24,000 nucleotides of DNA, taken from the NCBI RefSeq assembly GCF_003049645.1, contig NZ_PYWK01000001.1, positions 1,123,487 to 1,147,486 of the forward strand, read 5' to 3'. This DNA comes from Metasolibacillus fluoroglycofenilyticus. Lineage in GTDB: Bacteria > Bacillota > Bacilli > Bacillales_A > Planococcaceae. The translations under genes were made by a program, and so were the position numbers. Shown here piece after piece: positions 5,663 to 9,014 of this stretch. Positions within the stretch are counted from its first letter, which is position 1. Each line of letters begins with the position of its first letter. The notes beneath the pieces were generated by a model. The model searched no databases and was not told where the DNA came from. It saw only the letters and a program-made list of their open reading frames with translations.

Positions 5663-7447
5663 ATGCAAATAAAAGCAGAGAAAATCCACAAAACAATTGG
5701 TAGCAATGAAATTTTCGTAGGTTTACAGTTAGAAGTTAATGCGGGAGAACATATTGCCATTGTAGGACCAAATGGCTGTGGTAAAACAACCTTGCTACAT
5801 ATATTAGCAGGCGAAGATACAGCGGATGTAGGTCATATTATTAAAAGTAAAGACGCAACAATTGGCTATTTATATCAAATATCAAATTACCCGAACGATA
5901 CAGTGAGAGGCGTATTAGCGCAAGCCTTTGGGCCAATTTTCGAACTGAAAGAAAAGATGGAGAAGCTAGAGCAGCAAATGCATAATGAGGAAGTTACGCC
6001 AAAGCTTTTACAACAATATGGGCAAGTGCAGGAGCAATTTATCCAGCAGGGTGGCTATGAAATAGATTCACAACTAGCAGCAATTGCGAACGGATTAGGA
6101 ATTGCTACTCTTTTAACACAGCCATTTGAGGCGTTGAGTGGCGGTGAAAAGACGAAGGTGATGCTAGGTCAATTACTATTGCAAAGCCCATCTATTCTGT
6201 TATTAGATGAGCCGACCAATCATTTAGATATGGATGCCATTGAATGGCTTGAAAACTATGTGCAAAACTTTGAAGGCATTGTTATCGCTGTCTCACATGA
6301 CCGCCAATTTATGAATCAATTTGCACATAAAATTATCGAGATTGAGGATGGGCAAGCATTTACTTATCATGGCAATTACGATGCCTTTGTTAAGCAAAAG
6401 CAGGAGAAAATTGAACAACAATTTGCCCAATATGAGGAACAGCAGAAAAAAATCAAAAAAATGCAGGAAACGATTAAGCGTTTAAAGCAATGGGCAAATG
6501 AGGCTAACCCACCGAGTGATAGCTTACATCGTCGAGCGAAAAGCATGGAAAAGGCATTGGCACGTATAGAGCGTGTAAAAAAACCGACAAGCACGAAAAA
6601 AATGAACCTAGCATTAACGATGTCCGAGCGTAGTGGCAAAGAGGTGCTGTCCCTTGAAAATATTACACATAGCTATGGACGTACATTATTTTTAAATAGT
6701 CATTTAGCGGTTTATTTTCAAGATAGGCTAGCGATTGTTGGTCAAAATGGCTGTGGCAAATCAACTTTATTAAAAATGGTAACAGGTCAGGTCGTTCCAC
6801 AGCAAGGACTTTGTAAGCTCGGTAGCAATGTTAAAATAGGCTATCTGTCACAACAATTCGATTACAGTAATATAGAAATACGGGTAGTTGATGCCTTTCG
6901 AGATATAGTAGCTGTATCTGAGGCAGAGGCAAGACATAATTTAGCGCAGTTTTTATTTTACGGCTATGATGTTTTCAAAAAAATAAAGGATTTAAGCGGT
7001 GGCGAGAAAATGCGCTTACGTCTCGCGCAGCTCATGCATCAGCAAATTAATTTATTATTGCTAGATGAGCCAACGAATCACCTTGATATTGAATCACGTG
7101 AGGTGCTAGAGGATACATTAGAAGCCTTTGAAGGTACGATTATCGCTGTCTCACATGACCGCTATTTTTTGCAAAAGCTATTTACGAAAATAGCCTGGAT
7201 TGAGCAGCAACAGCTCACTGTCTATGAAGGAGACTATGAATGGGCAAAGGCAAAACGTGAAACCACTTGCCAAGTTATTGAAAAAGTCCATGTAGAGAAA
7301 GTTCAACGAAAAAAGCAATTCTCTATTTTAGAGCAAATTGAAAAATTAGAAATGAAATTAAAAGAGCCAACACTTCCTACCACTCAGCGCACAAAATTAG
7401 AGCAACAGCTAGAGGCATCGTATGAGAAGTGGTTATTAGAAGAATAG
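5663..7447 (+). CDS. ABC-F family ATPase (two ABC domains, no TMD) with a C-terminal coiled-coil extension
   Basis: Walker A motifs are GPNGCGKTT and GQNGCGKST. Signature motifs are LSGGEKTKV and LSGGEKMRL. GGAGG lies at 5651-5655, and the ATG at 5663 gives 7-nt spacing (alternative ATG at 5660). The track start at 5582 (GTG) lies upstream of the terminator and is rejected. Confidence 0.9.
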   Translation: MQIKAEKIHKTIGSNEIFVGLQLEVNAGEHIAIVGPNGCGKTTLLHILAGEDTADVGHIIKSKDATIGYLYQISNYPNDTVRGVLAQAFGPIFELKEKMEKLEQQMHNEEVTPKLLQQYGQVQEQFIQQGGYEIDSQLAAIANGLGIATLLTQPFEALSGGEKTKVMLGQLLLQSPSILLLDEPTNHLDMDAIEWLENYVQNFEGIVIAVSHDRQFMNQFAHKIIEIEDGQAFTYHGNYDAFVKQKQEKIEQQFAQYEEQQKKIKKMQETIKRLKQWANEANPPSDSLHRRAKSMEKALARIERVKKPTSTKKMNLALTMSERSGKEVLSLENITHSYGRTLFLNSHLAVYFQDRLAIVGQNGCGKSTLLKMVTGQVVPQQGLCKLGSNVKIGYLSQQFDYSNIEIRVVDAFRDIVAVSEAEARHNLAQFLFYGYDVFKKIKDLSGGEKMRLRLAQLMHQQINLLLLDEPTNHLDIESREVLEDTLEAFEGTIIAVSHDRYFLQKLFTKIAWIEQQQLTVYEGDYEWAKAKRETTCQVIEKVHVEKVQRKKQFSILEQIEKLEMKLKEPTLPTTQRTKLEQQLEASYEKWLLEE

Positions 7448-7461
7448 GAGGTGAAAACCAG

Positions 7462-7482
7462 ATGTGGTTATTATATTTATAA
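7462..7482 (+). CDS. Six-codon leader peptide MWLLYL upstream of the second ABC-F gene
   Basis: The SD AGGAGGTG (7446-7453) overlaps the stop codon of the upstream gene. The ATG is at 7462 and the TAA at 7480-7482. The first attenuator hairpin begins 3 nt downstream. Confidence 0.6.
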   Translation: MWLLYL

Positions 7483-7484
7483 GC

Positions 7485-7553
7485 CGATACGAGTTGTAAA
7501 CAGCTCGTATCGATAGTCACTATCGGTACGAAAAAATATTTTTTCGGAGGTAG
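7485..7553 (+). promoter_or_regulatory. Four-segment erm-like translational attenuator that sequesters the ABC-F SD
   Basis: Helix 1:2 pairs 7485-7496 with 7501-7512 (12 bp). The alternative helix 2:3 pairs 7505-7516 with 7520-7531 (12 bp). Helix 3:4 pairs 7529-7535 with 7540-7546, plus 7520-7524 with 7549-7553, and covers the SD GGAGG (7546-7550). Confidence 0.7.
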
Positions 7554-7559
7554 TGCAAA

Positions 7560-9014
7560 ATGGAACAATTGCAATTTGAAATAAAACAATTAACACATAA
7601 TTATTTAGATAAAGAAATTTTAAAGATTCCTTATTTAGCAGTGCATCAACTACAGCGTATTGGCATCGTAGGGAATAACGGTGCTGGCAAAAGTACATTG
7701 CTTAAGCTGCTGGCAGGAAGGATTTCCCCGACAATAGGACATATAAATAGCTTTGTTGATGCACTCTATATGGACCAAATTGATTTGCAAGTGGGAAATC
7801 ATATTGATTATGCATTGCAAGGGAAGCTGAATGTTGGTGCACAGCATGCCCATTTGAGTGGAGGTGAGCAAACTCGATTGAAGCTAGCGGAGCTTTTGTC
7901 GACATATGCTCCTTGTTATTTATTAGATGAGCCGACTTCGCATTTAGACCAAGATGGCATTCAGTTTTTGATTGATGAATTGACTTACTATTATGGGACA
8001 CTTATTATTGTCAGTCATGATAGAGCATTGTTAGATGCTGTTGTCGATACAATTTGGGAAGTGAAGAACGGCGCAGTACATGTTTATACAGGCAATTACA
8101 GCGCCTATAAAGAGCAAAAGGAACTAGAGCGTCAAATGCAGCAACAAGCTCATGAGACTTATATCAAAGAGAAAGGTCGATTAGAGGCAGCCGCCGCAGA
8201 TAAAATGAAGCGCGCGGAGCAAATGGCGCAGGCAAAAAGTATGTCACGCAAAGAGGCGAAGGCAAAGCCAAATCGCATGTTTGAAACAAAGTCGAAAGCC
8301 TCTGGACAGAAGGCTTTGCACAGAGCAGCAAAGGCGATGGAGGAGCGCGTGCAGCAGTTACAGGCAGTTGAAAAACCTGAAGCTGAGCGCATATTTCATT
8401 TTGCCCATCAGGCAATTACGGAATTGCATAATAAAGTGCCAATTTTGGCAAATGATTTTACGCTAATGGCTGGTGATAAGCTGCTATTACAACGCGTCTC
8501 TTTTCAAATTCGCCAAGGTCAAAAAATCGCTATTACAGGCGCTAATGGTAGCGGTAAAAGTACATTGCTGAAGGCCATTGCAGAAGGGGCAGAAGGTATT
8601 GATATATCGCCAAAAGTGAAAATCGGTTATTTTAGGCAAATGAGCTATCAATTCGAAGCTTCTGAAACATTGCTGCAATTTGCGAAGTCGCATGCTGTCT
8701 ACGATGAAGGCTTTTTAAGAAAGGTATTAGCTGCCATGCATTTTACACAAACTGATTTGCGCAAAAGTGTTCGCGATTTAAGTGGTGGTGAAGCGATGCG
8801 CCTACAGCTTGCTTTGTTATTTGTTGGGGATTACAATGTATTATTGCTCGATGAGCCAACTAATTTTTTAGATATTACATTACTGGAAGCGTTGGAGCAA
8901 TTTATTTTAGGCTATCAAGGCACTGTGCTTATTGTGTCGCATGACGCAAGCTTTTTAAAGCAAACAACAACAGTGCGTTACCATTTAGCAAAGCAAAAAT
9001 TAATTTTGCAATAA
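7560..9014 (+). CDS. ARE-type ABC-F ribosomal protection protein (Vga/Msr/Lsa-like) with an extended interdomain linker
   Basis: 484 aa. Walker A motifs are GNNGAGKST and GANGSGKST. Signature motifs are LSGGEQTRL and LSGGEAMRL. A basic 86-aa linker lies between GNYSAY and VEKPE. GNYSAYKEQKELER resembles the Vga(A) linker start as I recall it. Confidence 0.85.
   Translation: MEQLQFEIKQLTHNYLDKEILKIPYLAVHQLQRIGIVGNNGAGKSTLLKLLAGRISPTIGHINSFVDALYMDQIDLQVGNHIDYALQGKLNVGAQHAHLSGGEQTRLKLAELLSTYAPCYLLDEPTSHLDQDGIQFLIDELTYYYGTLIIVSHDRALLDAVVDTIWEVKNGAVHVYTGNYSAYKEQKELERQMQQQAHETYIKEKGRLEAAAADKMKRAEQMAQAKSMSRKEAKAKPNRMFETKSKASGQKALHRAAKAMEERVQQLQAVEKPEAERIFHFAHQAITELHNKVPILANDFTLMAGDKLLLQRVSFQIRQGQKIAITGANGSGKSTLLKAIAEGAEGIDISPKVKIGYFRQMSYQFEASETLLQFAKSHAVYDEGFLRKVLAAMHFTQTDLRKSVRDLSGGEAMRLQLALLFVGDYNVLLLDEPTNFLDITLLEALEQFILGYQGTVLIVSHDASFLKQTTTVRYHLAKQKLILQ

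Follow-up and report, generated by a model that had tools for sequence, protein, structure and literature searches.

The 24,000-nucleotide (nt) stretch of Metasolibacillus fluoroglycofenilyticus DNA analysed here (contig NZ_PYWK01000001.1, positions 1,123,487 to 1,147,486 of the forward strand; hereafter the window) contains two consecutive ABC-F genes, and the spacer between them most probably carries an MsrDL-like leader peptide together with a ribosome-mediated translational attenuator of the second gene, which encodes an Msr-type resistance protein. The element is a hybrid, in which a sensor peptide of the MsrDL type is joined to an RNA output of the ermC type. This reading is carried by the anatomy and geometry of the element, its energetics and its conservation. 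A sequence-only reading of the same DNA had proposed an attenuator controlling an antibiotic-resistance ABC-F gene, and the conservation of the upstream open reading frame (uORF), the helices, the folding energies and the specificity for msr genes all support that proposal.

Anatomy and folding of the spacer element

The two genes and the parts of the element are located as follows.

5660..7447, + strand: ABC-F1, the upstream ABC-F gene, about 595 amino acids (aa) from its ATG (open reading frame (ORF) list and translation)
7446..7453, + strand: Shine-Dalgarno sequence (SD) of the leader ORF, AGGAGGTG, overlapping the ABC-F1 stop; 10 nt from GGAGG to ATG (sequence)
7462..7482, + strand: leader ORF, ATG TGG TTA TTA TAT TTA TAA, encoding MWLLYL and a stop; putative MsrDL-like drug-dependent arrest peptide (sequence)
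7485..7496, + strand: segment 1, 5' arm of helix 1:2, starting 2 nt past the leader stop at 7480-7482 (minimum-energy fold)
7501..7516, + strand: segment 2, partner of segment 1 (through 7501-7512) or of segment 3 (through 7505-7516), with the core CTCGTATCG (fold and alignment)
7518..7535, + strand: segment 3, partner of segment 2 (through 7520-7531, the anti-sequestering helix) or of segment 4 (through 7518-7524 and 7529-7535) (fold and hairpin energies)
7540..7555, + strand: segment 4, which holds the SD of the Msr-like gene, GGAGG at 7546-7550, and is closed by helix 3:4 in the ground state (fold)
7560..9014, + strand: Msr-like ribosome-protection ABC-F of 484 aa (NCBIfam, sequence and structure matches)

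Direct reading of the sequence placed the TAG stop of ABC-F1 at 7445-7447 and the spacer at 7448-7559. The leader SD overlapping this stop, the six-codon ORF for MWLLYL and the spacer length of 112 nt were all found exactly where the sequence-only reading had put them. The GGAGG of the Msr-like gene lies 9 nt 5' of its ATG at 7560, and a consensus scan found no promoter-like or terminator-like site between 7000 and 7560. Considering that the stop codon of ABC-F1 overlaps the leader SD, ABC-F1 is probably co-transcribed with the leader and would feed ribosomes to it, and the same transcript probably includes the Msr-like gene.

The regulated gene encodes a protein with the two ABC domains and the linker asked for by NF000355 (ribosomal-protection-like ABC-F), against which it scored 515.3 bits, above the cut-off of 380. 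Against NF000168 (Msr family) it scored 662.3 bits, slightly below the cut-off of 680, and thus falls just outside formal membership of that family. The protein is 100% identical to one of Metasolibacillus sp. FSL H7-0170. The nearest relative with a name, 57.9% identical, is encoded on a Bacillus cereus plasmid by a gene called msr(G) by the resistance-gene predictor RGI; many relatives at about 58-60% identity carry the NCBI name 'Msr family', and the identity with Msr(D) is 42.7%. The best match among solved structures was MsrE (5ZLU, E = 7e-109), with an alignment running end to end.

Helix 1:2 joins 7485-7496 to 7501-7512 (12 base pairs (bp), one G-U, UAAA loop) and helix 2:3 joins 7505-7516 to 7520-7531 (12 bp, one G-U, 3-nt loop), both as they had been drawn from the sequence alone. 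For helix 3:4, the inner stem (7529-7535 with 7540-7546) and the placement of the GGAGG agreed with the earlier description, whereas the outer stem pairs 7518-7524 with 7549-7555 over 7 bp and not over the 5 bp that had been claimed. The unconstrained minimum-energy fold of 7440-7575 consists of exactly helices 1:2 and 3:4, in keeping with the proposed fold, at -39.5 kcal/mol; dinucleotide-preserving shuffles (n = 200) gave -21.7 ± 3.3 kcal/mol (z = -5.45), and none of the 200 was as stable. The hairpins of the window, when folded in isolation, had energies of -18.5 (1:2), -14.7 (2:3) and -13.2 kcal/mol (3:4). In this model, occlusion of the SD of the Msr-like gene arises from its being embedded in hairpin 3:4. 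A search of Rfam with the spacer element returned zero matches at gathering thresholds, and at permissive thresholds chance matches only (E about 0.6 or higher).

Within 7444-7480 of the minimum-energy fold, the region of the leader SD also pairs with the leader ORF, by means of two outer helices and of an AACCA-UGGUU pairing around the AUG. Such pairing, predicted by the folding model, could modulate translation of the leader.

Conservation of the leader and of its four segments

The DNA around proteins picked solely by similarity to the Msr-like protein (66-100% and about 58-60% identity) was retrieved. Every one of these loci, the window included (10/10), has an SD, a leader of 6-7 codons and the same four segments. 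The uORF and the alternative helices, on whose presence in orthologous spacers the sequence-only reading had been made to depend, were therefore found together in all ten. The other nine loci and their leaders are listed here.

L081, Metasolibacillus meyeri: MWLLFL
L083, Bacillus ndiopicus: MWLLFL (with other Leu codons)
L084, Solibacillus sp. CAU 1738: MTLLFF
L085, Lysinibacillus sp. LZ02: MYLLFM
L086, msr(G) plasmid: MQFLLFF
L087, Cytobacillus solani: MQYLLFH
L088, Ureibacillus massiliensis: MYLPLFF
L089, Paenibacillus apiarius: MHFLLFF
L090, Peribacillus frigoritolerans: MQFLLFF

Additionally, metagenomes were scanned with the core of segments 2 and 3 as the pattern (CTCGTATCG, 4-14 nt, CTATCGRTRCG). 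This returned 66 sites, about 42 of which lie directly 5' of Msr-like ORFs with a leader, the remainder being chance matches; the ORFs measure 482-488 aa where the contig holds the whole ORF. The 10 protein-selected loci and 32 metagenome copies were combined into an alignment (A2) of 42 distinct attenuators, to which the family figures below refer. As a negative control, we used 80 generic ABC-F loci from a contig scan that had picked Walker-type motifs, and neither the core motif nor such a leader occurred in any of them (0/80). In these comparisons, the element is specific to Msr-like genes, and it is also present in stand-alone loci that have no upstream cistron.

A GGAGG- or GGGGG-type SD occupies the position of the leader SD in all 42 sequences. 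The segment 2 core CTCGTATCG is likewise invariant (42/42), although the scan pattern had fixed it in the 32 metagenome copies, and its independent conservation is that of the 10 protein-selected loci only. Segment 1, which the pattern left unconstrained, varies solely by A-to-G changes that retain pairing with an unchanged U of segment 2. RNAalifold, run on the family alignment, recovered the cores of helices 1:2 and 3:4 unaided. Standard pairs fill 92.2% of the alignment cells of the ground-state pairing, compared to 25-49% when the partners are slid by 1-3 columns, and six ground-state pairs show compensatory, two-sided change, a number reached in 2 of 500 shuffles. One of the outer pairs of helix 3:4, for instance, is G-C in most sequences and A-U in the clade of the window. 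In the same way, helix 2:3 is paired in 99.8% of alignment cells, compared to 14-41% with slid partners.

The leader peptides of the family conform to the consensus x-L-L-F-[F/Y]-stop, and 26 distinct natural variants were counted. With positions numbered backwards from the stop codon, Leu stands at -4 in 40 of the 42 sequences (codons TTA, TTG, CTA) and at -3 in 41 (TTA, CTA, TTG, CTT, CTG), Phe stands at -2 in 41 (TTT, TTC) with the window as the sole Tyr, and F, Y, L, M or H is found at -1. The stop itself is TAA in 19 sequences and TGA in 23. The motif always adjoins the stop, while the N-terminal part varies, so that the peptide has 6 residues in 8 sequences, 7 in 32, 8 in one and 9 in one. 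The automated choice of the uORF demanded a hydrophobic C-terminus, which is a mild bias; a motif-free listing of ORFs shows the same uORFs as those ending beside helix 1. The retention of the amino acids through synonymous codon changes suggests that the leader peptide is under selection. The core of segment 1 begins 1-6 nt past the leader stop across the family, and in most members the stop is itself within helix 1.

Two smaller observations concern the leaders. Most of them contain TTCTTT, which fits TTNTTT, a motif for NusG-dependent pausing described in msrDL and vmlR; direct reading of the window leader showed that TTNTTT is absent from it, and the motif has no bearing on a translational switch. 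In the Peribacillus frigoritolerans locus, a second MsrDL-like uORF (MMMILFY or MMILFY) followed by GATGAGAG...GCTCATATCGAT lies at 2290-2375, upstream of the functional-looking copy, and resembles a degenerate tandem duplicate of the leader and helix 1:2.

Switch energetics, arrest position and alternative readings

For the energetics of the switch, the equilibrium fraction of paired SD bases was replaced by the ensemble energy needed to open the whole SD-to-start region. In the window this opening cost falls from 11.7 kcal/mol in the free RNA to 4.1 kcal/mol with a ribosome at the end of the leader (footprint taken as +13 nt, an assumption of the stall modelling), in agreement with the earlier proposal that a stall on the leader frees the SD. 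With the P site placed on codons 1 to 6 in turn, the cost is 11.9, 12.0, 11.8, 12.6, 7.7 and 4.1 kcal/mol. The family mean drops from 11.2 to 5.4 kcal/mol when the P site is occupied by the last sense codon, and the decrease amounts to at least 2 kcal/mol in 40/42 sequences. Because the cost is low solely at the last codons, the modelled switch opens only when a ribosome is held on the last one or two of them. Likewise, since segment 1 lies past the stop codon, the ribosome must stall at the last codon or at the stop, as has been shown for MsrDL. The mean energies of the hairpins in isolation are -16.3 (1:2), -11.8 (2:3) and -13.0 kcal/mol (3:4), and helix 1:2 is stronger than helix 2:3 in 41/42 sequences.

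These data are consistent with the following mechanism. In the off state, the mRNA would fold as hairpins 1:2 and 3:4, the latter burying the SD of the Msr-like gene so that it is poorly translated, while ribosomes constantly translate MWLLYL, normally terminate and depart. In the on state, a ribosome that has bound a macrolide would be blocked at its peptidyl-transferase centre by the nascent hexapeptide, at the last codon or at the stop, and, parked there, would cover segment 1, which begins 2 nt further on. Segment 2, thus freed, would pair with segment 3, segment 4 and its SD would be released, and the Msr-like protein would be made. By analogy with MsrD, this protein would then clear drug-stalled ribosomes and the switch would turn off again.

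The drug, the arrest step and the feedback are those that we infer by homology with MsrDL, the hexapeptide leader MYLIFM of the streptococcal mef(A)/msr(D) operon (Fostier et al., Nat Commun 2023, PMC10314930). MsrDL arrests while M6 occupies the P site and UAA the A site, and only in the presence of erythromycin or azithromycin; the arrest requires L3 and I4 but not Y2; the arrested ribosome sits over the first arm of the next hairpin; and synonymous recoding keeps the regulation, so that erythromycin is sensed via the peptide itself (PMC10314930). The two leaders are alike in being hydrophobic hexapeptides whose second and fifth residues are aromatic, whose positions 3-4 are Leu followed by Leu or Ile, and whose sixth codon is followed by the stop. 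Set side by side, they read MYLIFM in msrD and MWLLYL in the window, and the Lysinibacillus orthologue, MYLLFM, is one residue away from MsrDL. In both systems the gene ahead of the leader ends next to a strong SD, the hairpin follows the leader stop by a few nt so that only a termination-arrested ribosome covers its 5' arm, and the gene under control codes for an Msr-family ABC-F. The conserved LL core and the variable residue 2 mirror the mutational map of MsrDL, which makes macrolide-dependent arrest at or just before termination the most likely event; by the same analogy, the inducer is likely to be a macrolide that bears cladinose on a 14- or 15-membered ring, for example erythromycin or azithromycin.

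Differences from msrD are found in the output. There, the stalled ribosome blocks a Rho-independent terminator and the control is transcriptional, whereas here the arrest acts on a four-segment SD switch and the control would be translational. The msrD spacer has an intrinsic terminator (CCTGC...GCAGGGTTTTT) 6 nt past the stop and shares zero sequence with the RNA of the window. The upstream gene is a Mef pump there and an ABC-F here, and the two regulated proteins are only 42.7% identical.

The output resembles instead that of ermC. The ermC leader, ErmCL, has 19 codons and an IFVI arrest motif, stalls the ribosome in mid-ORF at codon 9, and includes segment 1 within the leader ORF. In the window, by contrast, segment 1 lies wholly after the stop, and the peptide, of 6 residues, lacks an IFVI motif; moreover, ermC encodes an rRNA methyltransferase and the window gene an ABC-F. 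Both share the 1:2 plus 3:4 ground state and the 2:3 induced state, the SD within segment 4, a leader SD of their own and a purely translational design (the four-segment model of ermC is summarised in PMC8116656). The label 'erm-like' used by the sequence-only reading thus fits the logic of the RNA, while the peptide is of the MsrDL type and segment 1 follows the stop codon.

Several observations weigh against the proposed attenuator or against parts of it. The earlier claim that helix 3:4 occludes the SD agrees with the opening cost of 11.7 kcal/mol and is qualified by the pairing itself, which involves only 3 of the 5 bases of the SD and leaves the start codon free. At equilibrium there is no clean on/off transition, since the mean pairing probability of the SD bases changes from 0.55 to 0.50 on stalling. 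Helix 2:3 is more stable than helix 3:4 in only 8/42 sequences, the window included, and kinetic folding must therefore be invoked for most members; the assumed ribosome footprint counts among these points too. Helix 2:3 shows zero compensatory changes, and its conservation in the metagenome copies was imposed by the search pattern, so that its support comes from conservation and not from covariation. MWLLYL is the most divergent peptide of the family: it alone among the 42 has Tyr at -2, and its Leu at -1 is rare. Leaders of the family mostly have 7 residues and not 6, and the structural mechanism of MsrDL may therefore not transfer exactly. Finally, the drug, the arrest site and the feedback lean on homology with MsrDL, a leader whose downstream RNA is unrelated in sequence.

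The divergence of MWLLYL bears on the identity of the inducer. The attenuator could operate as described and respond to other ligands, namely ketolides, 16-membered macrolides, streptogramin B, lincosamides, pleuromutilins, or several of these classes. Inducer specificity is set by the leader sequence (discussed in PMC10201436), MWLLYL differs from MsrDL at 4 of 6 positions (W2, L4, Y5, L6) besides being the family outlier at -2 and -1, and Msr proteins, according to annotation, protect against streptogramin B too. However, the L-L/I core that is essential for erythromycin sensing by MsrDL is conserved, and pleuromutilins and lincosamides arrest ribosomes at or near initiation, which would leave them at codons 1-3, where the switch stays shut. 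The ABC-F genes for resistance to pleuromutilins, lincosamides and streptogramin A have uORFs of 3-4 codons (vmlR MIN, cplR MRI, vmlR2 MK[L/Q], lsaA MAGN; PMC10201436, PMC9226507). These resemble the window element in that a resistance ABC-F is regulated by ribosome stalling on a uORF and the SD lies inside a hairpin, and differ from it in the length of the leader, in sensing drugs that block translation soon after initiation and in being mainly terminator-based. We regard a ligand spectrum other than that of MsrDL as unlikely, and an inducing macrolide of the MsrDL type remains the preferred reading.

The control of an intrinsic terminator by MsrDL, and the position of hairpin 1:2 directly 3' of ABC-F1, raise the question of whether the hairpins stop RNA polymerase, either as a transcriptional attenuator like that of msrD or as the terminator of ABC-F1. 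Neither hairpin, however, is followed by a U-tract (AUAGUCAC comes after 1:2 and CAAAAUGG after 3:4), and a terminator scan of 7446-7562 found none. The sequence of the msrD spacer is unrelated to that of the window, the element is also found at stand-alone loci, which lack an upstream gene in need of a terminator, and the SD always lies within helix 3:4. Together, these features make a terminator very improbable and agree with translational attenuation.

No more credence can be given to an amino-acid attenuator, in which the Leu-Leu-Phe-Phe/Tyr codons would sense a shortage of charged tRNA-Leu or tRNA-Phe. The leaders of leu and pheA contain runs of codons for their own amino acids, which the conserved Leu and Phe runs resemble, and a last codon waiting in the A site would also open the switch (mean of 5.3 kcal/mol at P-site position -1). 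Yet the regulated gene is a ribosome-protection ABC-F and not a biosynthetic gene, the last codon varies (F, Y, L, M, H), and the Leu codons are too far upstream, a stall there leaving the switch shut. The closest characterised relative, moreover, senses erythromycin via its peptide and keeps its regulation after synonymous recoding. The least credible alternative is that nothing is sensed, the hairpins being an intercistronic element for mRNA stability or processing and the mini-ORF a translational-coupling device, as the overlap of the leader SD with the upstream stop, a typical coupling layout, might suggest; the peptide is, however, kept through synonymous changes across proteins just about 58% identical, segment 2 retains its ability to pair with either neighbour, each pairing excluding the other, and the element is confined to Msr-like genes and present also where there is no upstream cistron.

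Genomic context and two-tier loci

The spacer of mef(F)-msr(G) on the Bacillus cereus plasmid AP022896.1 (gene names by RGI) and the chromosomal Bacillales Msr(G)-like genes carry attenuators of this family. In msr(G) the leader reads MQFLLFF, and segments 1-4 as well as the SD context GGAGGTAGC are shared with the window family. The msr(G)-type loci differ from the window in having leaders of 7 codons, the stop codon of which falls within helix 1, and an extra upstream ErmDL-like '+x+' leader (MTHSMRLR..., MTASMRLR...) with terminators, which the window does not have. The msr(A) leader MTASMRLK (read directly in locus L092), the mefAL leader MTASMRLR and ErmDL are comparable as macrolide-sensing leaders before Msr, Mef or Erm genes; msr(A) is different in its long leader region of about 250 nt.

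In the window and its closest relatives, L081, L083 and L084, an ABC-F gene precedes the attenuator and has its stop codon at or close to the leader SD, and no promoter is predicted between them, an arrangement that parallels mefA-msrDL-msrD. The stand-alone loci have, within the 400-500 nt upstream, a promoter, an ErmDL/MefAL-like '+x+' leader (Arg/Lys-x-Arg/Lys arrest motif) and terminator hairpins, and the last terminator of this first tier ends 15-35 nt 5' of the SD of the second leader. The first-tier regions are as follows.

L087, 2040-2400: leader MTHAMRLRFQSLNL
L088, 1990-2400: leader MTASMRLRFPALN
L085, 2640-2905: leader MYSIRLR
L086 (plasmid), 760-1190: leader MTHSMRLRSLTLNK, 5' of mef(F)

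The presence of a first tier in stand-alone and plasmid loci makes the two-tier design of mef(A)/msr(D) general in the clade. Judged from these loci, the lineage of the window appears to have replaced tier 1.

ABC-F1, the gene that now precedes the attenuator, is generic. NCBIfam assigns it just NF000355 (472 bits), and its closest solved structures are EttA, YheS and Uup, with no resistance factor among them. Upstream of it lie the following features of the window.

5423-5563: 46-aa RAxF-45 ORF (NCBIfam NF041642, 48 bits)
5586-5619: strong terminator-like hairpin, 15 bp and a T-run, about 40 nt before the ABC-F1 start
5549-5559 with 5638-5647: helix across the terminator, pairing the last codons of the RAxF-45 ORF with the sequence just before the ABC-F1 SD
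5650-5655: SD of ABC-F1

The helix of 5549-5559 with 5638-5647 shows compensatory changes in L160, and a short antiterminator-like pairing of TCTTTTTC with GGAAAAGA is also kept. The module of RAxF-45 ORF, terminator and ABC-F was present in 6/6 contexts (the window, L081, L083, L084, L159 and L160), with or without an msr gene, and may be a long-leader attenuator, or may encode an arrest peptide, for a housekeeping-type ABC-F. Close to its end the RAxF-45 ORF encodes K-I-R, which was considered as a '+x+' macrolide arrest motif and rejected, as it is not conserved (QIL in L084, QIITN in L159, FKNNA in L160).

The loci compared show a Bacillales family of x-L-L-F-[F/Y]-stop peptides that would be wired to an SD switch, mostly as the second tier behind a '+x+' leader. 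In the Metasolibacillus lineage, the arrangement of the genes indicates that this module has been grafted behind a housekeeping-type ABC-F, itself preceded by the conserved RAxF-45 ORF and terminator. The outlier MWLLYL may have a shifted drug specificity, and the two ABC-Fs may form a regulatory cascade. Taken jointly, a Bacillales-wide MsrDL-related family on an ermC-style SD switch, grafted behind ABC-F1 and with a shifted specificity or a cascade, is a tentative picture which we consider possible and rather doubtful as a whole.

Leader-peptide attenuation of resistance ABC-F and erm genes is textbook knowledge, MsrDL is established, and a specialist would expect such an element before an msr gene. 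In the searchable literature, we found no such leader family, no translational four-segment coupling and no spread over chromosomal Bacillales Msr(G)-like genes; nor did that literature hold a description of the leader or switch of mef(F)-msr(G) or of the Bacillales Msr(G)-like genes, or any paper with the leader peptide strings. The supplements of the MsrD paper (PMC10314930) make no mention of Bacillus-type leaders. The element predicts inducible macrolide resistance in environmental Bacillales and in the mobile mef(F)-msr(G) cassette, which has the same switch. The 26 natural variants are a ready mutational series on how a six- or seven-residue nascent chain and a macrolide block peptide release. 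The comparison also points to modularity, as one type of arrest peptide couples to a terminator in msrD or to an SD switch in the window family. The leader ORF and the switch are unannotated, and a covariance model could flag inducible msr genes.

Finally, the 9-mer TGGTTATTA is present twice in the window, at 7430-7438 and 7465-7473, where the copies encode the end of ABC-F1 (...KWLLEE and stop) and the start of the leader (MWLL...). The pair is kept in Metasolibacillus meyeri, and ABC-F1 homologues that have no downstream msr gene end in other ways (...ERWIEGGTGNE and ...KQKELYR, each followed by the stop). The repeat may be due to chance, or may be a recombination junction from the joining of the msr module.

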